Source: a virus (taxonomy: Duplodnaviria > Caudoviricetes). From it: 64,000 bases of DNA. The stretch covers positions 58,560 to 122,559 of the IMG/VR virus record IMGVR_UViG_3300031760_000010; one strand, given 5' to 3'. Of this stretch, positions 2,460-59,973 are shown one piece after another. Within the stretch, counting starts at the first letter, position 1. Every line of letters starts with the position of its first letter. Below the pieces are notes generated by a model, which ran no database searches, was not told the origin of the DNA, and was given only the letters and a program-made list of their open reading frames with translations. A program made the position numbers and the translations under genes.

Positions 2460-2702
2460 ATGGAATCGAACAACAAGGAAACGGTAGAAATGATGATCAC
2501 TTATTTTTTGAATGAAATTGAATTTCAGAAAGAGCTGATTCGTCATGCGAAACACGATATTGATGACGCAACGGAAGATGGTGATAATTCGAAACTTAGA
2601 ATTCATACCAAGATGCTGCGGAGAAGAGAAGCGAAGATGAATGATCTTCACCGGATGTTGGACTTTGTACAGAGGCTGCATTACGAAATGGAGGTACAGT
2701 AA
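2460..2702 (+). CDS. hypothetical protein
   Basis: GGAGGG RBS before ATG 2460; helical ORF abutting radC. Confidence 0.55.
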   Translation: MESNNKETVEMMITYFLNEIEFQKELIRHAKHDIDDATEDGDNSKLRIHTKMLRRREAKMNDLHRMLDFVQRLHYEMEVQ

Positions 2703-3169
2703 TGAGAGCAATTCAGTATGATACCAGATTGAGCCGGGATCGGTTGCCGATGCTTGTAAAAGAAAGCAGCTTCAATTACAGCGGTAATGTTTACTTGACT
2801 TCTCCTGTTGCGATCTATCAGTTTCTGCGTCAGGCAGATGATGTTGAGACGTTGGACAAAGAAAAAGTGTATTTGTTTTGCTTTAATAACAAAAGCAAAC
2901 TGATTGGTTGGTTCATTGTATCTGAAGGAACGATCAATCTTTCGTTAATGTCCTCAAGGGAAGTGTTTATCAAAGCGCTTGCCGTCGGAGCGGTAAATAT
3001 TATTCTGGTTCACAATCATCCGAGCGGTGATCCCTCACCCAGTACAAACGATGACAAAGTAACAGAAAATGTTAAGCAAGGTGGTAGTATTCTGGGAGTA
3101 CCGTTATTGGATCATGTTATTATCGGTGACAGAACTTATTATTCCTATATGGAGAATGGGAGGTTGTAA
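2702..3169 (+). CDS. radC: RadC-like JAB domain protein
   Basis: HNHPSGDPSPSxxD and LLDHVIIG motifs. Confidence 0.9.
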   Translation: MRAIQYDTRLSRDRLPMLVKESSFNYSGNVYLTSPVAIYQFLRQADDVETLDKEKVYLFCFNNKSKLIGWFIVSEGTINLSLMSSREVFIKALAVGAVNIILVHNHPSGDPSPSTNDDKVTENVKQGGSILGVPLLDHVIIGDRTYYSYMENGRL

Positions 3170-4341: not shown

Positions 4342-4526
4342 AGCAAAGGAGGTATACACATGCGGTATTATTACAGATTCATTATTGTAGACGGTTCCGG
4401 GGCTGAGGTAAGCAGAGATTACGTCACAAGAAAAGACGCTGAGTTCGATCTGCCTGAGTACAAGAAACTGTGTGGTGGTTGTCGCATTAAGAGAAGACGG
4501 TATTACTATCAGTAAAGGAGAATAAC

Positions 4527-4919
4527 ATGAAATATTACATCGTACCGAAGAATGAAATTGCAATGGAAATCAATGCCAATATCATGAAGTGTGAATCCGC
4601 AGCGGACGCCATGTCCTTTTTCGCCATCAATATGGATTCTGATATGAATACATATTTTGAAGCTGTAAGCGAAAATGATTGGGCAATGTATCAGCTTAAG
4701 CGAACTCAGACAGAAGAGAAACGAATATTTCTTGAGTTCGCAGAAGATGTTTTAGAGGAAGACTTCGATGATATTGAAGAAGACGATATTCCTGCTTTGG
4801 CAGAATATGCTTGGGAGCTGTACTGCGGAGAACGCAAAGGAGGTGAGGGACTGACAGAGTATGAGTGCATTGAGAAGGCGGTTGATGATAATTATGAAAC
4901 GATTGAGGAGGAAGAATGA
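4527..4919 (+). CDS. acidic hypothetical protein
   Basis: AAGGAG RBS; D/E-rich. Confidence 0.6.
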   Translation: MKYYIVPKNEIAMEINANIMKCESAADAMSFFAINMDSDMNTYFEAVSENDWAMYQLKRTQTEEKRIFLEFAEDVLEEDFDDIEEDDIPALAEYAWELYCGERKGGEGLTEYECIEKAVDDNYETIEEEE

Positions 4920-5248
4920 TGTCGTGGACTAGCATGAAAAATTCCAGATCTTATCTGAAGGCAGATACGAAGAGAAGAGATTATAATGATCCATATGCAG
5001 AAATAGCTGCAGCTGCTGTTCGTCAGGCTGTGAATGATTGGGTGGAGTTACATAAGAAGAGAGGCAAACCTGAATGGTTACGTGACCCGCCTGGTACGAA
5101 AAAAGAGAATCGGCGCACGAAGGCAGATGAAATTCGTAACATTGAAGAGTTTTTCTTGAGTGAAGACTTTCAGATGTACACGGATATTGATGGGAAAAAG
5201 CTGTTGGAATATCTGAAAGATCTGTATCTGTTGCGGAGAGTTGTATAG
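4916..5248 (+). CDS. hypothetical protein directly upstream of the RT
   Basis: ATGA overlap with previous gene; AAVRQAVNDW...IEEFFLS...DIDG pattern common in Firmicutes phages. Confidence 0.6.
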   Translation: MMSWTSMKNSRSYLKADTKRRDYNDPYAEIAAAAVRQAVNDWVELHKKRGKPEWLRDPPGTKKENRRTKADEIRNIEEFFLSEDFQMYTDIDGKKLLEYLKDLYLLRRVV

Positions 5249-5271
5249 GTTAAATTAAACGGAGGCAAACA

Positions 5272-6525
5272 ATGGATGTATTACTGCAGAAAATGTTTTT
5301 GGAACCAGAGAGATGGACCGAAGCGATTGAAATTGGTGTTGGTAAAAACATCAGCAAAACAGAAATGAGACAGTTATGTGATCCTGAAGTACGGAAAGCA
5401 TTGTTGTACAAGATTGCAACAGATCAGTACAGAATTGCTCCACCGCATACAGCACAGATTCCAAAGGATACACCGGGTGAATTCAGAACGGTTTATATCA
5501 ATGAAAACATTGATCGAATCTTTCTGAGTCTGGTGAACAATCTTCTGTTTGAGATGTTCCCGGAGATGATTCATCCTGCTTGTACGTCTTATCAGAAGGG
5601 CATCGGTTGCGGCAAGGTAGTGCAGAGTATCTCTAAAGAGATACAGAAAGGGAACGGAACAGTCGGATTCAAATCAGATCTGAGTAAATACTTTGATTCA
5701 GTCCCGCTGAAATGGATTGATTATGTCTTCGATCAGATCGAAACGAAAGTCGGGAAGAGCATAATCATTGATATTATCCGTGATTATTATCATACGGACT
5801 GGTGCTTTGACATTGAAGGGAATTTGATTCAGCATTATCAGTCATTGAAACAGGGCTGTGCTGTAGCGAGTTTTCTTGCGGATGCCATGTTATATGACAT
5901 GGATGAGCGGTTAAGTAAACTAAAAGGGAAGTATGTACGATACAGTGATGACTGTTTATATGTTGGATCTGATTATGAAGATGCAATGCGGATAATGAAA
6001 GCAATGTTAGCAGAGAAAGGACTGACATTGAATCCGAAGAAAGTAGAGTACATTGATGGAAATCGTTATGTCAAATTCCTTGGTTTCAGCATTTGCGGAG
6101 GAAATATCAGTCTCAGTAAGAGCCGAGTAAAGACATTCCAGAAAGAAATTGAAAAGCGAACCATCAAAAGCAAACGGTCGTATAAAGCAGCTGTAAATGC
6201 AGTCAATCAGTATCTGTATGGTGGAGAATACAGTTGGGCAACATCTGTATTACCAATCATCAATGTAGAGGAAGACATACAGGAACTGAACAAGTTCGTT
6301 ATGGACGCATTGAGAGCTGTGCAGACAGGGAAAAAGAAGATAGGAGGTCTTGGCTATGTTCCTGATGGTAAAGTAGGCGTGATCAGTCGTGGAACTGGCC
6401 GCAACGTAAAAGCGAATCGTATGAAAACAGCTAAAGAAATTAGTGGGTATCATACGATTAATGAAATGCGGCTGGCTTTAATGACTTCAAGGGAAGTGTT
6501 TGATACTCTGGTAAGAATGATGTAA
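5272..6525 (+). CDS. Reverse transcriptase (stand-alone, unknown-group-like; not group II intron, DGR or classical retron)
   Basis: IPKxxxGEFRTV, FKSDLSKYFDSV, LKQGCAVASFLAD, YVRYSDD and KFLGF motifs; 417 aa; GGAGG RBS. Confidence 0.93.
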   Translation: MDVLLQKMFLEPERWTEAIEIGVGKNISKTEMRQLCDPEVRKALLYKIATDQYRIAPPHTAQIPKDTPGEFRTVYINENIDRIFLSLVNNLLFEMFPEMIHPACTSYQKGIGCGKVVQSISKEIQKGNGTVGFKSDLSKYFDSVPLKWIDYVFDQIETKVGKSIIIDIIRDYYHTDWCFDIEGNLIQHYQSLKQGCAVASFLADAMLYDMDERLSKLKGKYVRYSDDCLYVGSDYEDAMRIMKAMLAEKGLTLNPKKVEYIDGNRYVKFLGFSICGGNISLSKSRVKTFQKEIEKRTIKSKRSYKAAVNAVNQYLYGGEYSWATSVLPIINVEEDIQELNKFVMDALRAVQTGKKKIGGLGYVPDGKVGVISRGTGRNVKANRMKTAKEISGYHTINEMRLALMTSREVFDTLVRMM

Positions 6526-6538
6526 ACAACAAATCATT

Positions 6539-6770
6539 ATGGCAAGAATGTATGCTAGGCAAATGAAATTTAAGTCATACAGCTCCCAGCCACTTAACCT
6601 GGATCCTGCCAGGCTCGAGCTTGGCAAGTTGTCTGACGACAATGCCGGAAGCTCGAACCAGGCAGGATCCAGGTGACCATCCTGAAGTATCCTTCAGGAT
6701 TAGTCGCTGGTAGCTGTATCTCCTATGAAACAAATAAAGGAAGCCATCATGTTTGTAAGGCATACATAAA
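6539..6770 (+). ncRNA. RT-associated structured RNA unit 1 (branched hairpin cargo)
   Basis: acctggatcctgcc/ggcaggatccaggt (6597-6610/6661-6674), atcctgaag/cttcaggat, atacagct..agctgtat; scaffold helices atggc/gccat and atgtatgc/gcatacat. Confidence 0.75.
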
Positions 6771-6775
6771 TAATA

Positions 6776-6945
6776 GTGCAATGGAAATCAATAAGGATCT
6801 TATATTTAGTCCATGCTGGAGGCGGCCACCGGTCGTCGCCCGCAATGGACTCTATCGTTATGCGGGCGACGACCGGTGGCCGCCTCCAGCATAATGACAT
6901 GAGACAAATAGAGAGAAGCACCGCAAGATATGAGTTGGTTTCAAT
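6776..6945 (+). ncRNA. RT-associated structured RNA unit 2
   Basis: Perfect 32-bp inverted repeat 6813-6844/6861-6892; scaffold helices gtgc/gcac and gaaatcaa/ttggtttc. Confidence 0.75.
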
Positions 6946-6948
6946 CCT

Positions 6949-7120
6949 AATGGCAAGGGAAGTATGAGGAGAGGTAAACATTTATGATTACGGATCCCGG
7001 CAGCACCTGCTGCAGGCACACGTTTCATTGACATTCACGGATCCTGCAGCAGGTGCTGCCGGGATCCGTAATTGATGATACTCAGTACAGAGATGCCATT
7101 TTTACCCCGGATCATACATT
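6949..7120 (+). ncRNA. RT-associated structured RNA unit 3
   Basis: Perfect 30-bp inverted repeat 6987-7016/7043-7072; scaffold helices aatggca/tgccatt and gtatga/tcatac. Confidence 0.75.
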
Positions 7121-7143
7121 TAATAGAGTAAGGAGACAGCGAA

Positions 7144-7587
7144 ATGATTTTGTTTGATAAATTGGTCAACGAGATAGGTAAAGGTTCGTCAGTACTCATA
7201 CGACTGAAGGAAAAGGACCTAATCGTGAATGGTCAGTATTGGATTCAGAACGGTAAAGTAAACGAACCGTGTGATACACTGATGAAACACTATGCGAATA
7301 TTATGGAACTGATTGAAGATATGTATATCAGTTACAAGTATTCGTATCCCGATGAAATGGGAACCAAACGAAAGCGAAGTTATTTTAAAGCGCTTACCGC
7401 TGATGAAATGACAGATGCAGAACTGGTGACTGGTGCTAAAAGGAGGACAGCAAGAGTTCTGTTAGAAGCAACTGTATTACTTAGTACATTGAACGGAGAT
7501 CTCAAATGGAGGGATGAATGGGGATCTTGGTTCTATCAGGGAAAGAAAGATAAGGATTTCATTCTGTTAAAGGAATGGGTCGTGTAA
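7144..7587 (+). CDS. hypothetical protein, candidate RT accessory 1
   Basis: AAGGAG RBS; directly follows the RNA units. Confidence 0.7.
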   Translation: MILFDKLVNEIGKGSSVLIRLKEKDLIVNGQYWIQNGKVNEPCDTLMKHYANIMELIEDMYISYKYSYPDEMGTKRKRSYFKALTADEMTDAELVTGAKRRTARVLLEATVLLSTLNGDLKWRDEWGSWFYQGKKDKDFILLKEWVV

Positions 7588-7639
7588 CGTAACTTAGTGG
7601 GTAAGTAAACTACAATATAAAATAATAGGAGAATAAATT

Positions 7640-8566
7640 ATGCAGAACAGAAATAATAGAATGAACACTCTGAACAACGCTGGTATCGATACTTCCAAAT
7701 ATTATAACGTGGCTATTGACAAGGCACTTCCGAAGGGAACTACGCTGACGATCACGATTGGTGAGAATGGTCTGCCTACGGTTACGACAACGGAACTGAA
7801 AGGAATGCTGGACCAGATCGACAATCAAGGATATGTAAAGAACAGCAATCTGTTCAGACGTTGGGTGATGGCTCAGACGTTCCGTATGATGAAACATGAG
7901 GGCGGCTATACCACAGCTCTGAACGAGAAGCCGTATAAGTATCAGTGGACGATGCTTGAGAATGAACTTCATGCTATGAGCAAGATCGAAAAGGAAGATA
8001 AAGAACTGTTCAAGGTACGGAAAGATTTCTTTACCAAGGAAGTGATCATTGCCATGCTTGAGGATTACAAGGCAAAGCTGAATGCCGAGTGTGAGCGCGA
8101 GTTTTGGGCGTGGGCACAGCGTAAGCGTACAGAAGGTATCGCAATTGCGAATATCACAATTGATGCAATCAAGCAGTGTACAAATTATAATGGTTACTAT
8201 CAGATTATCCGAGAGTTTAACAAGGAACTGAAGGGTGGACGAAGAGATGGTTATTATTGCCCGGATCTGACACTGAGCCGTACCACTGCCAAGTGTAAGG
8301 AATGGATCGATGCGTACAAGGGAGCGGGTGCGTATTACAGCCTGCAAAATTATCTGCGGTTCCATGCAAATACTCATGTATATCTGCCGACGAATGAGAG
8401 AGGCCGTGTTCTTTGGGCAACTCGTCTGGAGGCGGAGGGAGAACTGGAAGTCAAGAGAGAAGAATACAAGGGACAGTGGTATAAACTGTTCGGTTACTTC
8501 AAGAGAGTAATTGAACTGAATCAGTTCGATTTCGATAAAGCCATGCGTCAGAAGTATAATCGGTAA
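7640..8566 (+). CDS. hypothetical protein (FRRWVMAQ motif), candidate RT accessory 2
   Basis: AGGAG RBS; 308 aa; lies between RNA units 3 and 4. Confidence 0.75.
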   Translation: MQNRNNRMNTLNNAGIDTSKYYNVAIDKALPKGTTLTITIGENGLPTVTTTELKGMLDQIDNQGYVKNSNLFRRWVMAQTFRMMKHEGGYTTALNEKPYKYQWTMLENELHAMSKIEKEDKELFKVRKDFFTKEVIIAMLEDYKAKLNAECEREFWAWAQRKRTEGIAIANITIDAIKQCTNYNGYYQIIREFNKELKGGRRDGYYCPDLTLSRTTAKCKEWIDAYKGAGAYYSLQNYLRFHANTHVYLPTNERGRVLWATRLEAEGELEVKREEYKGQWYKLFGYFKRVIELNQFDFDKAMRQKYNR

Positions 8567-8579
8567 TAACGGAAAGGGA

Positions 8580-8722
8580 TTGCGACCCGATAATACAATA
8601 CTATAAGTTTAACATTATGATCCTGGAAGGCGGATAGCTGCGGATTATCTTCCGGCTTCCGCCTTCCAGGATCAGATTGATGAATCCATTACAGAAACGC
8701 AAAATGATAGTTGAGTATTGTC
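8580..8722 (+). ncRNA. RT-associated structured RNA unit 4
   Basis: 17-bp perfect stem 8618-8634/8658-8674; scaffold helices ttgcg/cgcaa and acaatact/agtattgt; atgaatccattacagaaacgc motif. Confidence 0.7.
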
Positions 8723-8729
8723 AAAGTCC

Positions 8730-8783
8730 TTGCCAAAGGACAATGAGCATGGTATAGTATGAACAGAAACGAACATATGTTCG
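8730..8783 (+). promoter_or_regulatory. sigma-A promoter with Gram-positive LexA/DinR SOS box
   Basis: ttgcca-N17-tatagt with extended TG; cgaacatatgttcg at 8770-8783. Confidence 0.75.
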
Positions 8784-8800
8784 AAATATTATAAAGGGGG

Positions 8801-9043
8801 ATGACGAATATGTATGTTGTAGTTGTAACCAATAATTATAATGACAAAGGAGAAGCTATCTTATGTAAGACAAAAGATGACGGTATTAAGGAACTGAAGG
8901 AAAAATTCTTGACACTATGTGATGAAGCAATCAATTTAAACAGACACCACACACATGTGTCTGCTGATCTGCTGTATGCGGAAGTATGGGATGGATTATT
9001 GGCAACAGAAATGAGAGTACTACCCGCTGTGGGAACGAACTGA
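8801..9043 (+). CDS. small hypothetical protein, probably SOS-inducible
   Basis: Follows the SOS box; ends before terminator. Confidence 0.55.
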   Translation: MTNMYVVVVTNNYNDKGEAILCKTKDDGIKELKEKFLTLCDEAINLNRHHTHVSADLLYAEVWDGLLATEMRVLPAVGTN

Positions 9044-9157: not shown

Positions 9158-9907
9158 ATGGCAAGAAGAAAGCCGAAACAGTACAAGCTGACAAACGGCG
9201 TGGTTTATGATCTGTATCTGACAGGAGACACGCATGTGCATATCTCTAGCGGTAACGAAAAGATTGGCAAGGGAATTTACAATCTGTCCTTGCTTCCGGG
9301 AGACGAACCGTTGAAACGGAAAGATGGTCTGCAGCTTACGAATATTGCTGGTACTTGCCATGGTTGCTGTGATGGTTGCGGTGATTGTTGCTATGCAAAA
9401 CGTTCTGCAATTCAGCATCACAATGTGAACATCAAAGCATGGGGTGAGAATACTATGCTTGCAAGGGAAGATACGGAAACGTTCTTTGCTGAGGTCCAGA
9501 CCTTTCTTGATCGCAATGTGGTTTCGGTATTCCGAGTTCATGTGGGCGGAGAGTTCTTCTCTTATGCTTACATAAAGAGATGGGTTGAGTTCGCTGCGAA
9601 GAATCCTGATGTGATCTTTTATGTTTACACGAAGCGGTTCGGATGGGTCGAGAAGGTAGACGAAGAGTACAACGGAGTTCTTCCTGATAATTTTAGAGTG
9701 CTGGTTTCGATTTGGCATAAGAATTACAGCAACCCGAGAGGCTTTGCAGAGTTCATTTATGACGACGGAACGGAACCTGAGCTGAAAGATGTTGTCCACT
9801 GCCCGGCAGTAGATAAGAATGGTCATGAGACTGGTGTTACTTGTTCGATGTGCAAGAGATGCATTAAGGCAAAGAAAGGGACCAGAACTGCAGTGTACGC
9901 ACATTAA
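9158..9907 (+). CDS. GP88-family protein (Cys-rich, radical-SAM-like)
   Basis: GNEKIG, TCxxxxxxCxxxCYA, FRVHVGGEF, YVYTK and TCxxCxxC motifs. Confidence 0.75.
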   Translation: MARRKPKQYKLTNGVVYDLYLTGDTHVHISSGNEKIGKGIYNLSLLPGDEPLKRKDGLQLTNIAGTCHGCCDGCGDCCYAKRSAIQHHNVNIKAWGENTMLAREDTETFFAEVQTFLDRNVVSVFRVHVGGEFFSYAYIKRWVEFAAKNPDVIFYVYTKRFGWVEKVDEEYNGVLPDNFRVLVSIWHKNYSNPRGFAEFIYDDGTEPELKDVVHCPAVDKNGHETGVTCSMCKRCIKAKKGTRTAVYAH

Positions 9908-10617: not shown

Positions 10618-11553
10618 ATGGCAGCATGTGTAGAGACTATGTTTAGTGTAAGAGAGACACCGTGGCATCATCAGGGGACCGTTGTTCAGGATGCTCCGAC
10701 TTCGAAAGATGCGATCAAGTTGGCGGGTCTGGATTGGAGAGTGATTCAGCATGAAGTAGTAGATAAGGAAACAGGAATTGTGATTCCGGGATTTAAGATC
10801 AACGTAAGGGATATCGATAATAAGCCTTTGGGAATGGTGACTAATCGTTACCGTATCTGCCAGAACGAAGAAGCATTTGATTTCACAGACGCTCTGCTTG
10901 GAGAAGGCGTGACCTATGAAACTGCCGGAAGTCTTTCGTCTGGAAAGCGAGTATGGCTGTTGGCAAGAATGGAAGGCAGACAGATGACGGGAGAGGACTT
11001 CATCCCTTATCTTGTGTTTACGAATAGTCATGATGGCACTGGTGCTATTAAAGTTGCGCTGACAAATGTTCGCGTTGTATGCCAAAATACTTTGAATATG
11101 GCGCTGAATGGCGCTCAGAGAAGTTGGGCATGCGTTCATAAGGGAAATATTCAGGATAAACTTCAGGAAGCTTACAATACACTGTCCAGAGCAGAAAATT
11201 ATCTGGACAAGATGGAAGAAGAGTTCGGGGAATTGAAACTGAAGAAATTGACCGACGATAAGGTAAAAGAGTTTATTGATCTTCTTCTTCCAGTGGACGA
11301 GATGAATGATACGAAAAGAAAGATTCTGAATATTACGGAAAAGAGAGCAGAACTAATGTATCGTTATCAGGAGGCACCTGATCTGAGAGACATCGAAAAG
11401 TCTGGCTATAGATTTTTGAATGCTGTAAGTGATTTTGTTACTCATTCTGAACCACTGCGGCTGACCAAAAGTTACAAAGAAAACTTATTTATGAACGTGG
11501 TGGATGGCCATGCGTTTATGGATAAGGCATATGAGATGATCAAGGCAGCGTAA
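10618..11553 (+). CDS. DUF932 / phage-plasmid LGT family protein
   Basis: TPWH, LAGLDW, NSHDG and RVVCQNTL motifs. Confidence 0.85.
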   Translation: MAACVETMFSVRETPWHHQGTVVQDAPTSKDAIKLAGLDWRVIQHEVVDKETGIVIPGFKINVRDIDNKPLGMVTNRYRICQNEEAFDFTDALLGEGVTYETAGSLSSGKRVWLLARMEGRQMTGEDFIPYLVFTNSHDGTGAIKVALTNVRVVCQNTLNMALNGAQRSWACVHKGNIQDKLQEAYNTLSRAENYLDKMEEEFGELKLKKLTDDKVKEFIDLLLPVDEMNDTKRKILNITEKRAELMYRYQEAPDLRDIEKSGYRFLNAVSDFVTHSEPLRLTKSYKENLFMNVVDGHAFMDKAYEMIKAA

Positions 11554-14173: not shown

Positions 14174-15160
14174 ATGAATGGTAGGGAAGAATATAATTAT
14201 CGGTTGAAAATTAAAAATGACAAATATATCCATGATCACCCAGAATTGAGGGGGTTTAAAAACTATTTAAGTGATTATAGTCAAACGACGGTTTATAATT
14301 ACTTGTTAATTATTACCAGGTTTAATGAATATGTTAAAAAGCCAGAACAAAGATTAACTATTGATGATTTTAGTGGCTATTTAAATATTATGAAATTTAA
14401 AGAAAATGGCGAACTACGTAACAATAGTAACATGATTACTATTTATCATGCATTGAAAAACTATGCTAGTTATTTAGAAGCTAAAGGGGTTTTAAAAAAT
14501 AATCCTATGGAAAAAGTTAGGCGGCCAAAGTTTTCTGAAAGTCAAATTACGATTCAAAAAAGGGAAAATGCTTTTTTGACGTCACAAGAAATTACAGAAC
14601 TGTTAAATAACATAAAACAGGGGGTAGGATCTTCAAAAGCAAAATCTTTTCAAGAACATTTAAAAGAAAGAGATATTGCTATTGTTCTAGTCTTTCTGAG
14701 CACTGGTATCCGTTGTTCTGCATTGTGTAATTTAGATGTAGATAGCTATGATGCTACCAACCATAGATTAATTGTAACTGATAAGGGAGATAAAACACAA
14801 TTTTTTTCGTTAAATAGTATAACTTGTGATGCGATTAATACTTGGTTACATATTAGGTCTCGTATGATAGCTGATACTGATAATTGTAATGCTTTATTTA
14901 TTTCTCAAAAACGGAAAAGAATGGATCAATCAACAATTAGTTACAATTTGAAAAAATATACTATTACCATTCAAGGCAAACATATCACTCCTCATAAACT
15001 TCGGGCTACTTATGGTACTCAGCTTTATGAAGCGACAAAAGATATTTATTTTGTCCAAAAAGCTATGGGACATAATTCTCCGACGACTACAGAGAGATAT
15101 GTAAGAGGCCAGGATGAGGTGACAAAGGAAGCTTCTGATATTATGGGAAGACTGTTTTAA
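14174..15160 (+). CDS. XerC/D-like tyrosine recombinase (SPbeta YopP-like)
   Basis: TGIR, KGDK, HKLR, MGHNS and TTERY catalytic residues. Confidence 0.9.
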   Translation: MNGREEYNYRLKIKNDKYIHDHPELRGFKNYLSDYSQTTVYNYLLIITRFNEYVKKPEQRLTIDDFSGYLNIMKFKENGELRNNSNMITIYHALKNYASYLEAKGVLKNNPMEKVRRPKFSESQITIQKRENAFLTSQEITELLNNIKQGVGSSKAKSFQEHLKERDIAIVLVFLSTGIRCSALCNLDVDSYDATNHRLIVTDKGDKTQFFSLNSITCDAINTWLHIRSRMIADTDNCNALFISQKRKRMDQSTISYNLKKYTITIQGKHITPHKLRATYGTQLYEATKDIYFVQKAMGHNSPTTTERYVRGQDEVTKEASDIMGRLF

Positions 15161-15663: not shown

Positions 15664-15921
15664 TTGGCAGAGGGAGGGGTGAATAGGGTGGAAGAATTAA
15701 AAAGGTGCCCGTTTTGTGGAGAACAGCCAGTATCTGGAGTTGAATTTTCTGGAAGCGATGGTGTAACAATAAAATTAAAAGCGGTTGTTCGTTGCCCAAG
15801 ATGCGACGTTTCAAGAGGGTTTGTTTTTAAAGCAACGGATATTAATCCAGTACCGTTTTTTACTTATGAAGTGGCTTTTGATAAAGCTAAAACGCAATGG
15901 AATCAAAGGAGTGACGTATGA
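15664..15921 (+). CDS. Lar-family restriction alleviation-like zinc finger
   Basis: ELKRCPFCG..CxxC..WNQR. Confidence 0.65.
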   Translation: MAEGGVNRVEELKRCPFCGEQPVSGVEFSGSDGVTIKLKAVVRCPRCDVSRGFVFKATDINPVPFFTYEVAFDKAKTQWNQRSDV

Positions 15922-19998: not shown

Positions 19999-21246
19999 AT
20001 GAGAACAACACGAGAAGAATTAGTACAACATTTACGGAAACCATTGTTACAACTTAGTATCGATGTACAGAAACGAAATAAGATAGTATCTTATTTGACA
20101 GAACAGTATAATGTACCAGAATCAGTTGTTTCAGACTATATACTTGGCCAGAAGAGTATTGATTCAGCTGATAATCAAATGTTGTTCTTTTTATGCGATG
20201 GATTAGATAAAGTACAAAAGAAATCTAATTGGGTGGATAACTATTTTACTGATCCAGAGAAGCGGTTGTGGGGTACTTCTAAAATAGAAGAGAAGACGAT
20301 TGAATGGCCGTTACGGTTTGCTATGCTGCAAGTCAGCGATGATTCCTGGATCGGACCAGTAACTGTTCGGCAGTTAACAGAATTGTATTCTAGCCAGCTT
20401 ATTAATTACAATACCAATACGCAAAGGGCTTTAAAACAGTATTATGTAAAAAGCGAATATGTGTATAGGATTGCGATTAATAAAAACGCCGTGGCAGAAA
20501 TCAAGAATCTTTTCCATGAAGGTAAATACATTTCTAATACTATCACTTTAAATATTCCAGCTGATAGCAACGCAGATTTCTATTATGACAATAAAAGTCA
20601 TGAGTTAGTAGTTAAGCATATTGATATGTTTGATATTCTAGATGGTTATCATAGATTGTTAGCTATGATTCAAGAATATCATGATAATGAGTTTGACTAT
20701 CCTATGGAGCTGCGTATTACTAATTATGATGATTTGAAGGCAAAACAATTTATTTATCAGGAAGATCAGAAAACGAAGATGCGGAAAGCTGAGTCTGATA
20801 CTTATAATGTTTATTCGCCTGAGAATAAAGTCATTTCCAGATTAAACATGGACCCTGGCAGTGAGATACAGGGTATGATTGGTATGGGAGACGCAAAAAT
20901 TTCTCAGACATGGCTGTCATCTATAATTAGTATTTGGTTTAGAGGGAAGACCATAGAAGCTAGTAAAAAAATAATTCCAGAAGTGACAACTGCGCTAATG
21001 GAAGCCTTTAACAGTTTAATTGCTCATGACCGTATTTATGAGTATAAGATTTATACTTATAAAGAGATTGCCGCGGTTGGGTATTATGCTTATAAGATAA
21101 CCGAGGGAAATCATTATAATAATGTTGGCGATGCGATTGCCAAGTTGATTGCTTTAATAGCTGAAGATAATAATGCTAGATTGTCTGCGAATCGTAATTT
21201 TACAAAAACTGTAATTGCTTATCTCGATAGAATCGTAAAGGGGTGA
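19999..21246 (+). CDS. DndB/DGQHR-like protein (SPbeta YopQ-like)
   Basis: TQR and ILDGYHR motifs; adjacent to an MrpR-like gene. Confidence 0.65.
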   Translation: MRTTREELVQHLRKPLLQLSIDVQKRNKIVSYLTEQYNVPESVVSDYILGQKSIDSADNQMLFFLCDGLDKVQKKSNWVDNYFTDPEKRLWGTSKIEEKTIEWPLRFAMLQVSDDSWIGPVTVRQLTELYSSQLINYNTNTQRALKQYYVKSEYVYRIAINKNAVAEIKNLFHEGKYISNTITLNIPADSNADFYYDNKSHELVVKHIDMFDILDGYHRLLAMIQEYHDNEFDYPMELRITNYDDLKAKQFIYQEDQKTKMRKAESDTYNVYSPENKVISRLNMDPGSEIQGMIGMGDAKISQTWLSSIISIWFRGKTIEASKKIIPEVTTALMEAFNSLIAHDRIYEYKIYTYKEIAAVGYYAYKITEGNHYNNVGDAIAKLIALIAEDNNARLSANRNFTKTVIAYLDRIVKG

Positions 21247-22160
21247 CGACAGTTATGATGTATAATGCGGAGCGGAAAGAACGGTATATTGAAGCAAAAG
21301 AAGCCATTACTGAATTGCCCAATAATTTTTTGCCAAGATTGTTTAAACAGCTAAGCGATTATGAAGAAAAGTTAAGTAAAGACGCATGTGATTTTACAGA
21401 AACTGAAATTTGTTCTTATTATAAATTGAGAGGAAGTCGTTCTGTAAATAATTTAAGGAATCTTAACAGCCAATTGTCATTATACACAGATTGGTGCTTG
21501 GGCCAGGGGTTTGTTATTGATGGACAGAACCACTACAGGGTGCTGAACCAAGAAGACTTTGAGGGTTGTATTAATTTGGCTGCCATTCAGATATTGTCAA
21601 TTGGAAGGGAAGATCTAATTCGTCAACTTCGTACATTGCCAAACGCAAGAGAGCGATTCGTAATTCTATATCTATTTGAGGTTGGATCCAAAGACTTAGT
21701 CAGTATTTTTAAGCAGATGACGCTTGATTGGTTTGACGGAGAGATTTTGCATTTGCCTGGCCGAGACGTAGCCATTTCTGATGAGTTATTACAATTTGCT
21801 GAGGAAGCTGCTGCAGAAAGAGAATTAGTTTCTTATAATGCAACGCAAAAAACTTTTCCGCTTGTTCCAGATGGGAAGGTAGTGCAATGGAGAAATAATC
21901 AAAGGGCAGAAATTGTACGAATGTCTCAATATTCTTTGATATGTAAAAGAGCGATGGATTGGTTAGGATATGGATCATTGCGGCCTAAAGAAATCGAACT
22001 TATGGGAATGAAATATATGTTCGAACAATTGGGTAAAGAATATGGATTAAGTATAACGGACGCTATCTTTAATAAAGAACTATTCCAACGGGTTATGAAC
22101 CAATACGGGGTATCATTCCCGCAAAGAGCATTTTATAATAAAATAAAAGGGTATCTGTGA
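21243..22160 (+). CDS. MrpR/YopR-like lytic-cycle repressor (recombinase fold)
   Basis: MYNAERKERYI N-terminus, KDACDF, YTDWC and L.NARERF..L.LFE; no catalytic HxxR/Y. Confidence 0.6.
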   Translation: MTTVMMYNAERKERYIEAKEAITELPNNFLPRLFKQLSDYEEKLSKDACDFTETEICSYYKLRGSRSVNNLRNLNSQLSLYTDWCLGQGFVIDGQNHYRVLNQEDFEGCINLAAIQILSIGREDLIRQLRTLPNARERFVILYLFEVGSKDLVSIFKQMTLDWFDGEILHLPGRDVAISDELLQFAEEAAAERELVSYNATQKTFPLVPDGKVVQWRNNQRAEIVRMSQYSLICKRAMDWLGYGSLRPKEIELMGMKYMFEQLGKEYGLSITDAIFNKELFQRVMNQYGVSFPQRAFYNKIKGYL

Positions 22161-58731: not shown

Positions 58732-59973
58732 ATGGATCAAATGAATTATGATATAAACTCTCCAGAGTTGTTGCAATACATTCCAGACTCTGTTAAAATG
58801 CAATTAGCAGATGTATGGCGAAATTGCGAAATGGCAAAAAAAGAAGAAGTGCTAAAAAGGAATAACGTCACAATTTCACCTACAAAAGATGGACAATACA
58901 CTACGCATTTTTATGTTATGGGGAGTGATGGTAAAAAGAGCAGAAAACAAATCAAGCGGAAGTCCCGTGAGGCACTGGTAGACTATGTATTTGAGTTTTA
59001 TAAAGAAGTAGAAGATAATCCAACAATCAATGATATATTTTATCAGACTCAAACAGATCGTGAAAAATACGATCATAAAGAGCCTAGTACAATATCCAGG
59101 GATGCTCGTGCATATAGAAGATATTTCACGTCATTTGGAGAAAAACATATTAAAGATGTTACTGCAATTGATATTGAACATTTTCTACGTGATACGAGAC
59201 GCCAGCTGGATTTAAACACAAGAGGCATGGATTATCTGCTACAAATCACCCGCCGTATATTAGAAGAAGCATCAGTGAACCACTATATTTCATATGATTA
59301 CGAAGTTCCGTTGAGAAATGCTAAAACATCTGCCAGACGGTCCGTTAAGCGGATTCGTAAAACAGATGAAGAAGAAGTATACTCCAGAGAAGAGATGGCA
59401 AGATTAGAAGAATATTTGAGAACCGATCCGTCCATACACGCTTTAGGAATCCGACTGATGATGCAGACCGGCATGAGGGTAGGAGAGGTAGCTGCGCTCA
59501 AGTGGGAAGATTATGATGAAATCAATCGATCTATCCATATTCAACGCACTGAAACTTTCTTCACCGACGAGCATGGTAAATACCATGTGGCAGTTTCAGA
59601 CCATCCTAAAACAGATGCTGGTAATCGTTATATACCAGTCACGGATGCAGTTCGAGAAATATTACAAGCTGTCAGAGTAAAAAATAAAACTCAAAGTGAA
59701 TATATGTTCTGCTATAAAGCTCAACGAATCAAATCAGAGAAGATTAGAAAAAAGCTGATGAGAGTTTGTCAATATGCGGGAATACCGTACAGATCTCCTC
59801 ACAAGTTTCGCAAGACATTTGCGACTATGCTTTATGTTAAAGGCACCCCGCCACAGATTATCAAAGAGATCATGGGGCATACTCGTTTTGATATTACAGA
59901 AAATGTGTATATCAAACCGTATGGGGAACTAGGGGAAAAGGCTGATGCGATGAGTCAGGCTTTGGTCTGGTAG
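58732..59973 (+). CDS. int: phage tyrosine integrase
   Basis: TGMRVGE, PKT, HKFR, MGH and VY. Confidence 0.92.
   Translation: MDQMNYDINSPELLQYIPDSVKMQLADVWRNCEMAKKEEVLKRNNVTISPTKDGQYTTHFYVMGSDGKKSRKQIKRKSREALVDYVFEFYKEVEDNPTINDIFYQTQTDREKYDHKEPSTISRDARAYRRYFTSFGEKHIKDVTAIDIEHFLRDTRRQLDLNTRGMDYLLQITRRILEEASVNHYISYDYEVPLRNAKTSARRSVKRIRKTDEEEVYSREEMARLEEYLRTDPSIHALGIRLMMQTGMRVGEVAALKWEDYDEINRSIHIQRTETFFTDEHGKYHVAVSDHPKTDAGNRYIPVTDAVREILQAVRVKNKTQSEYMFCYKAQRIKSEKIRKKLMRVCQYAGIPYRSPHKFRKTFATMLYVKGTPPQIIKEIMGHTRFDITENVYIKPYGELGEKADAMSQALVW

Follow-up and report, generated by a model that had tools for sequence, protein, structure and literature searches.

The closest described relatives of the system reported here are the UG27 reverse transcriptases (RTs). 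Mestre et al. 2022 (PMC9226505) described UG27 as an RT of gut phages accompanied by proteins of clusters 346 and 337 and by a presumed non-coding RNA (ncRNA), found no association with defence islands, and speculated that the system serves addiction or anti-defence. In a preprint of September 2026 (Minerva; bioRxiv 10.64898/2026.09.22.753630), the UG27 intergenic region was shown to be a variable array of ~150-nt pseudoknotted units, which in the five systems tested are reverse-transcribed into abundant single-stranded DNA (ssDNA) hairpins of 50-100 nt. Synthesis of this complementary DNA (cDNA) requires the RT, the small accessory protein (sORF) and the large one (bORF), all three; it starts at the AUC of an AUC-N7-UANAG motif and ends past UUYA. 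The authors of the preprint found no obvious complementarity of the cDNA to phage or host genomes and regard its biological role as unknown: we know that this widespread gut-phage system puts out short cDNA hairpins from an array, but not what they are for. Here we show the identity, anatomy and site statistics of such a system in a 64,000-nt stretch of phage DNA, positions 58,560 to 122,559 of IMG/VR virus record IMGVR_UViG_3300031760_000010; this whole stretch is called the window below. A first-pass annotation had noticed G+C-rich hairpins at 6597-7072 of the window, and had proposed that they are packed with restriction-type sites and may serve as DNA decoys.

Our reading, to which we give a probability of about 85%, is that this locus holds a complete phage UG27 (class 2 UG/Abi) RT system with a four-unit ncRNA array, whose central template hairpins are the four seen here, and that the restriction-type sites in them are a by-product of composition. 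Their identity as a UG27 template array is secure.

A four-unit UG27 template array

The operon comprises the following features, in window coordinates:

5272..6525, + strand: UG27-class reverse transcriptase, 417 aa (PADLOC RT_UG27, E 4.1e-198; Pfam RVT_1, E 6.6e-23)
6529..6767, + strand: ncRNA unit 1, from folds and motifs; scaffold plus branched cargo hairpin 6577-6720; TTTA 6569-6572, ATG-N7-TAAAG 6725-6739
6765..6948, + strand: ncRNA unit 2; cargo hairpin 6813-6892 with a 32-bp perfect stem and 16-nt loop; TTTA 6805-6808, ATG-N7-TAGAG 6899-6913
6949..7117, + strand: ncRNA unit 3; cargo hairpin 6987-7072 with a 30-bp perfect stem and 26-nt loop; TTTA 6981-6984, ATG-N8-TACAG 7075-7090
7144..7587, + strand: small accessory protein (sORF, cluster 346), 147 aa (PADLOC RTas346, E 7.1e-40, covering 3-146 of 147 aa)
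7640..8566, + strand: large accessory protein (bORF, cluster 337), 308 aa (PADLOC RTas337, E 6e-63)
8580..8721, + strand: ncRNA unit 4, detached, downstream of the bORF; cargo hairpin 8618-8674 with a 17-bp perfect core; TTTA 8608-8611, ATG-N7-TACAG 8680-8694

Assignment to UG27 follows from the RT_UG27, RTas346 and RTas337 matches, the motifs that bracket every hairpin, the crossing helices in three of the four units, and the large-phage context. The RT is full length, its residues 4-417 aligning to positions 5-420 of the 420-position RT_UG27 profile, and its active site is YSDD (codons ~5941-5952), with Y224, D226 and D227 invariant in the RT alignment. The model of a related clade, Drt9, also matches it (E 2e-26); the best retron RT model, Ec107-like, reaches just E 4.9e-9, against 4e-198 for UG27. 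AlphaFold2 models of the two accessory proteins are confident (sORF, pLDDT 92.8 and pTM 0.87; bORF, pLDDT 86.8), and Foldseek against the PDB returned nothing at E<=0.001 for either. No solved structure resembles the sORF model, whose best VIA-align Z is 3.8, and the protein may have a new fold; VIA-align gave the bORF model only generic four-helix-bundle rows (best Z 8.7). Neither model having an informative structural relative, we draw no function from them.

The four units share one plan: TTTA, a gap of 4-9 nt, the hairpin, then ATG-N7 (N8 in unit 3)-TA[A/G/C]AG. Around this core the scaffold is predicted to form crossing helices, among them 6548-6555 with 6760-6767 in unit 1, 6949-6955 with 7094-7100 in unit 3, and 8580-8584 with 8698-8702 and 8595-8602 with 8714-8721 in unit 4; in these three units the crossing pairs exceed those of shuffled flanks (P 0.02-0.03 each), and their sequences vary from unit to unit. 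This resembles published UG27 systems (PMC9226505; 10.64898/2026.09.22.753630), which likewise combine RT_UG27 with clusters 346 and 337 in a phage, have tandem units of ~150-230 nt with UUYA, a variable hairpin and N7-UANAG in a scaffold that is pseudoknotted there and probably so here, and may carry additional units in an adjacent intergenic region. The first-pass description of the hairpins as variable cargo of repeated RNA units beside an RT was right: these are the known template hairpins. The same motif pattern finds 4-7 units in most of 240 related loci, 160 from IMG/VR and 80 from named genomes, which form the family set used below. Units were called by two motifs plus a closing fold, and as a control on this procedure the reverse strand yielded 18 calls against 167 on the forward strand.

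The hairpins themselves are as first described. The region 6520-7145 is far more stable than its shuffles (z = -19.3). Checked pair by pair, the stems 6813-6844/6861-6892 (32 bp) and 6987-7016/7043-7072 (30 bp) are Watson-Crick throughout, with zero G-U pairs and zero mismatches; the branched stem of unit 1, also confirmed by folding, has an outer stem spanning 6577-6720, a main arm at 6597-6674 whose basal 14 bp pair perfectly, and, at 6675-6705, a side hairpin. The four 5' arms are 64% G+C, against 37.7% for both the 64-kb window and the 122.5-kb record. Public metagenome assemblies of relatives (Logan contigs, four bovine-gut runs) either end at the two perfect inverted repeats (~6785-7086) or do not cover them.

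By homology with the five tested UG27 systems, the RT would act together with the small and large accessory proteins on units in which, within a probably pseudoknotted scaffold, a 5' UUUA and a 3' AUG-N7/8-UANAG flank the sequence-variable hairpin. Synthesis would begin with the 3' motif's first triplet and halt just beyond UUUA, giving predicted ssDNA products of ~159, 97, 97 and 75 nt able to fold back into DNA hairpins; the predicted cDNAs do fold strongly as DNA (z -8.7 to -14). Copying of the hairpins into hairpin cDNA, as the first-pass annotation supposed, is thus what the homologs lead one to expect for this phage.

A role of the hairpins at the RNA level alone, ending, processing or stabilising the operon transcript, with no cDNA that matters, is hardly credible. 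The RNA folds are strong, and across the family G-U pairs (120, or 3.4% of 3,571 pairs) are five times commoner than A-C 1x1 mismatches (24), so the RNA-level fold is also constrained. Against a purely RNA role, no U-tracts follow the stems, G-U pairs make up just that 3.4% and are absent from the two long stems, and the locus has all three proteins and the cDNA-delimiting motifs of the tested homologs.

Retrons, in which an msr-msd ncRNA and an RT yield msDNA, offer a second comparison, in that there too a neighbouring ncRNA has a hairpin-forming part that an RT turns into a short hairpin of ssDNA, made in abundance. They differ in serving host defence, in using one template upstream of the RT, in priming from a conserved G through a 2'-5' branch and in having an effector toxin, whereas in the window the templates number four and lie around and downstream of the genes, two accessory proteins are encoded, the carrier is a phage and no effector was recognised. 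A retron identity, which would call for a single msr-msd ncRNA with a1/a2 inverted repeats on its flanks and a branching G, beside an RT of the retron clade and an effector, was considered and rejected on the weak retron RT match, the four units with their different scaffold, and the lack of an Rfam retron match: an Rfam search of 4500-9000 matched no family, retron or otherwise, and on the hairpins yielded just look-alikes of microRNA precursors below threshold. The DRT2/UG2, DRT9/UG28 and DRT3 systems (class 2 UG/Abi) have RTs of a related clade and also make cDNA from a dedicated ncRNA; theirs, however, is long, concatemeric or homopolymeric and serves host defence, in contrast to the short discrete hairpins of phage-borne UG27.

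Restriction-type sites in the stems

Every restriction-type site listed in the first-pass annotation does occur in the arms. Whether the arms hold more of them than their composition predicts is a separate matter, and we counted one arm per stem so that no site would be scored twice. For the window this means four 5' arms (124 nt), set against mono- and dinucleotide-preserving shuffles. For the family, the 5' arms were de-replicated into a discovery set of 125 arms (4,735 nt) and 87 replication arms that have no 10-mer in common with the first set, pooled as 212 arms (7,979 nt).

In the window arms there are 10 palindromic 4-mers against 8.7 expected (P 0.35-0.37), 13 interrupted 5-mers against 8.4-8.9 (P 0.08-0.09) and 5 palindromic 6-mers against 2.3 (P 0.06-0.08). 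The sole high score belongs to the annotation's own site list, at 20 against 5-7 expected, and it is circular because the list was picked after the sequence had been seen. Among the discovery arms, palindromic 4-mers (314 against 283, z 2.1) and interrupted 5-mers (320 against 273, z 3.0) are in modest excess and 6-mer palindromes are not (61 against 69). Non-palindromic CTGG, CCAG, CCTG and AACC are enriched in these arms as much as CCGG or GCNGC, and palindromic 4-mers are there no different from the rest (Mann-Whitney P 0.14; for 2N2 words, P 0.047). Single-linkage clustering on shared 7-mers merged all stems into one cluster and was discarded, and with strict clustering on 9-mers, which left 30 clusters, the palindrome excess is gone.

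The pooled arms gave the same answer. Every class of inverted repeat, for half-sites of 3-5 nt with spacers of 0-10 nt, lies within z +/-2.5, and 6-mer palindromes number 97 against 112 expected. Maximal-order Markov observed/expected (O/E) ratios are 0.68 for CCWGG, 1.13 for GGATCC, 0.98 for ACCGGT and 0.41 for CTGCAG. Single arrays reach P<0.05 at the rate of chance: 2 of 35 non-redundant arrays for 4-mers and 0 of 35 for 6-mers. What the arms are rich in is CAG/CTG (1.65x) and ATC/GAT (1.52x) trinucleotides, and the sites are in the stems because of it: they are a by-product of G+C-rich, CAG/CTG- and GAT/ATC-rich composition, not selected. The claim that the stems are packed with sites beyond chance therefore fails at each level, in the window (P 0.06-0.37), in the family and in single arrays. 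The first-pass annotation had itself named a site density equal to that of GC-matched random stems as the outcome that would speak against it, and equal density is what we found.

These results bear on the proposal in its full form, that the cDNA hairpins have been selected to carry many type II sites (GATC, CCWGG, GCNGC, CCGG, GGCC, BamHI-type and others) and, as high-copy unmethylated duplexes, titrate host restriction endonucleases. Several points speak for it. The sites exist in the stems; cDNA hairpins are abundant in the tested homologs; a Lar-like open reading frame (ORF), RadC and DUF932, neighbours of an anti-restriction type, lie nearby; CCGG, GCNGC and CCWGG are ~2x over shuffles in moderately de-replicated stems; and the 122.5-kb record under-represents all 16 palindromic 4-mers (O/E 0.65-0.98), an avoidance that suggests restriction pressure. 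Set against this, the palindrome class is enriched neither in the window nor in the family nor in any single array; CCWGG falls below its Markov expectation; and GGCC, GCGC, CATG and CTAG are depleted in the stems. Baits for enzymes that a phage must evade could be expected to carry the words it avoids, yet such words are not over-represented in the phage's own stems (377 against 372.5 expected, P 0.35; permutation over 147 loci), nor are they when GATC is left out (168 against 178, P 0.82), and in the carrier phage the 6-mers present in the stems have the same O/E as other 6-mers (P 0.7). The word biases of the stems tend to go with those of the flanks (Spearman +0.48) rather than to oppose them. 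Selection for type II sites is thus unsupported by the window, the 212 stems, the 35 arrays and the own-avoided words alike, and we consider this explanation very unlikely. Restriction enzymes, moreover, turn over on cleavable decoys, and a decoy that must first be transcribed, await translation of its enzymes and be reverse-transcribed comes late for an incoming genome.

The nearest precedents for the idea are the DNA-mimic anti-restriction proteins Ocr and ArdA, which likewise saturate DNA-binding defence enzymes with a DNA-like ligand. They are uncleavable proteins directed at type I systems, whereas the UG27 ligand would be real, cleavable DNA, and no sequence evidence links the stems of the window or family to restriction sites. 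In the literature we found no paper proposing or testing UG27 cDNA as restriction decoys; the family-wide null on palindromic sites takes away the simplest form of an idea that comes readily to mind.

Outside its arrays, the 122.5-kb record lacks ten palindromic 6-mers, among them CTCGAG, whose sole copy lies in the unit 1 stem. At 6657 in that stem, contigs from the four bovine-gut runs carry G where the window has A; with G, a C-A mismatch opposite 6614 becomes a C-G pair and a second CTCGAG appears on the 3' arm. The window variant at 6614/6657 would be a G-T wobble in cDNA.

GATC and recurring duplex words

GATC is an exception to the general picture. In the pooled flanks of UG27 phages it has a Markov O/E of 0.31, and its mononucleotide O/E is below 0.5 in 96 of 116 loci. 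(UG27 gut-phage flanks also avoid GGCC, Markov O/E 0.43, and CTAG, 0.47.) GATC is avoided in the arrays' non-coding scaffolds no less than in genes, with 39 occurrences against 213 expected in the discovery set and 26 against 77 in the replication set, so its presence in stems is not simply a contrast of coding with non-coding DNA. In the stems it has the highest stem-to-flank O/E ratio of the 136 four-mer classes, at 1.82 versus 0.37 in discovery, and again ranks top in the 87 replication arms (1.72 versus 0.33). It occurs in 30/125 discovery and 20/87 replication stems, and in three of the four window hairpins, as GATCC in units 1, 3 and 4. Within stems, however, it stands at its second-order Markov expectation (51 against 56, O/E 0.91), which means that avoidance is lifted there with no positive enrichment.

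One explanation would be that some one in four hairpins persist because their duplexes, through GATC, bait endonucleases of the DpnII/MboI type, methyltransferases of the Dam type or further proteins that read this word, the rest baiting readers of other duplex words such as ATCCWG and CCAGCT. The top rank in both sets, the avoidance of GATC by the scaffolds as well, the share of stems that carry it, and the fact that each stem GATC costs the phage two sites in its own double-stranded DNA all fit. If true, it would account for the roughly three-fold purge of GATC from genomes and scaffolds, which spares the reverse-transcribed stems, and would make UG27 the first system found to manufacture real-DNA decoys. 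The details are less obliging. Stem GATC matches its Markov expectation; it occurs at scattered positions and in diverse contexts; an underpowered comparison of orthologous stems shows it conserved no better than other 4-mers (7 clusters, 4 up and 3 down); and the strength of a phage's GATC avoidance does not correlate with its stem GATC load (rho 0.1), the window's phage itself hardly avoiding the word (O/E 0.87). The cause may also be neutral: to lose a palindrome, a stem must undergo two changes that compensate each other, and cargo is replaced quickly. On balance we judge GATC baits quite unlikely. A stricter design, one GATC hairpin per array, was tried and is unsupported, arrays lacking such a hairpin being no rarer than chance (3/30 against 4.8 expected).

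Certain short duplex words keep returning in the stems, reading either way and at no fixed place: ATCCWG in 34 of the 212 arms, and also CCAGCT, TCCTGA and AACCAG. Together with the replicated lifting of GATC avoidance these are the remaining leads, and both point to protein partners that read sequence. Our leading guess, which we hold tentatively and at somewhat less than even odds, is that DNA-binding proteins of host or phage, recognising short duplex words or hairpin shape, would have the cDNA hairpins as ligands or decoys.

Words reused in both orientations are like protein-binding sites, which would also suit hairpins that serve the phage's own biology instead of counter-defence, as primers or structural DNA in replication or packaging, or as regulators of the lysis-lysogeny or early-to-late switch that sequester DNA-binding regulators of phage or host. 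The operon does lie amid early genes, replication-module genes and recombinases, and the lack of a defence-island association reported by Mestre et al. (PMC9226505) is consistent with such a role. Between the stems and the remainder of the 122.5-kb genome, however, matches do not exceed chance, the longest for hairpin arms being 10-13 nt, the same as for shuffles; operator-like inverted repeats are not enriched; and the great diversity of cargo among related phages fits an arms race better than housekeeping. We regard a role of this kind as fairly unlikely.

Several observations weigh against the UG27 template-array reading with by-product sites. In the array itself, the 3' motif is AUG in place of the published AUC, the spacer of unit 3 is 8 nt, and the scaffold helices of unit 2 are at chance level (P 0.6). 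Of 682 unique hairpins from the 240 family loci, none has perfect runs longer than these two stems (median 8 bp, 99th percentile 19), which makes the array atypical; a recent inverted duplication, or unusually strong selection for full duplex, is possible. As to the stems' content, the lifted GATC avoidance is not fully explained as a by-product of composition, and the recurring words hint at sequence-specific reading. Finally, cDNA synthesis is known from homologs, and we infer it for this phage. Compared with published UG27 systems, the window further differs in having four units only, in its 30-32-bp perfect stems, in one branched cargo of ~144 nt, in nearest RTs that are ~62-64% identical and in its bovine-gut source. 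It is a somewhat atypical further example of the published UG27 system.

Carrier phage and gene neighbourhood

The carrier is known as a 122.5-kb IMG/VR record, 80% complete, that encodes its own polymerase, primase, helicase and ligase as well as NrdD. It is contained in bovine-gut metagenomes of several studies, and no RNA sequencing run is among its listed holders, which are metagenome contigs only. The RTs nearest to that of the window, at 62-64% identity, come from Faecalimonas and Ruminococcus assemblies, and the carrier's host is probably of Lachnospiraceae type, its source the bovine gut. Among GenBank phages the sole match (27% coverage, 63.6% identity) lies within the RT gene of Bacteroides phage BS-TP1, and five single-protein locus scans with distant RT representatives returned nothing, or the query alone.

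Other annotated genes around the operon are:

732-1304: DUF5688
2702-3169: RadC-like JAB protein
9158-9907: GP88-family protein
10618-11553: DUF932
15664-15921: Lar-like restriction-alleviation ORF (27-30 bits, at the Pfam cut-off)

From these matches the genes around the operon look like an early region of counter-defence type. The first-pass annotation had cited the RadC, DUF932 and Lar-like genes as fitting an anti-defence island; they are indeed present, by Pfam and profile matches, and suit such a region, though they have no bearing on whether the stems were selected for sites. A Pfam scan of ten small ORFs near the operon gave no families, and no DNA methyltransferase of PF02086, PF00145 or PF01555 was found in the 122.5-kb record, which is 80% complete. 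The 64-kb window also carries three genes of the tyrosine-recombinase/integrase family, at 14174-15160, 21243-22160 and 58732-59973.

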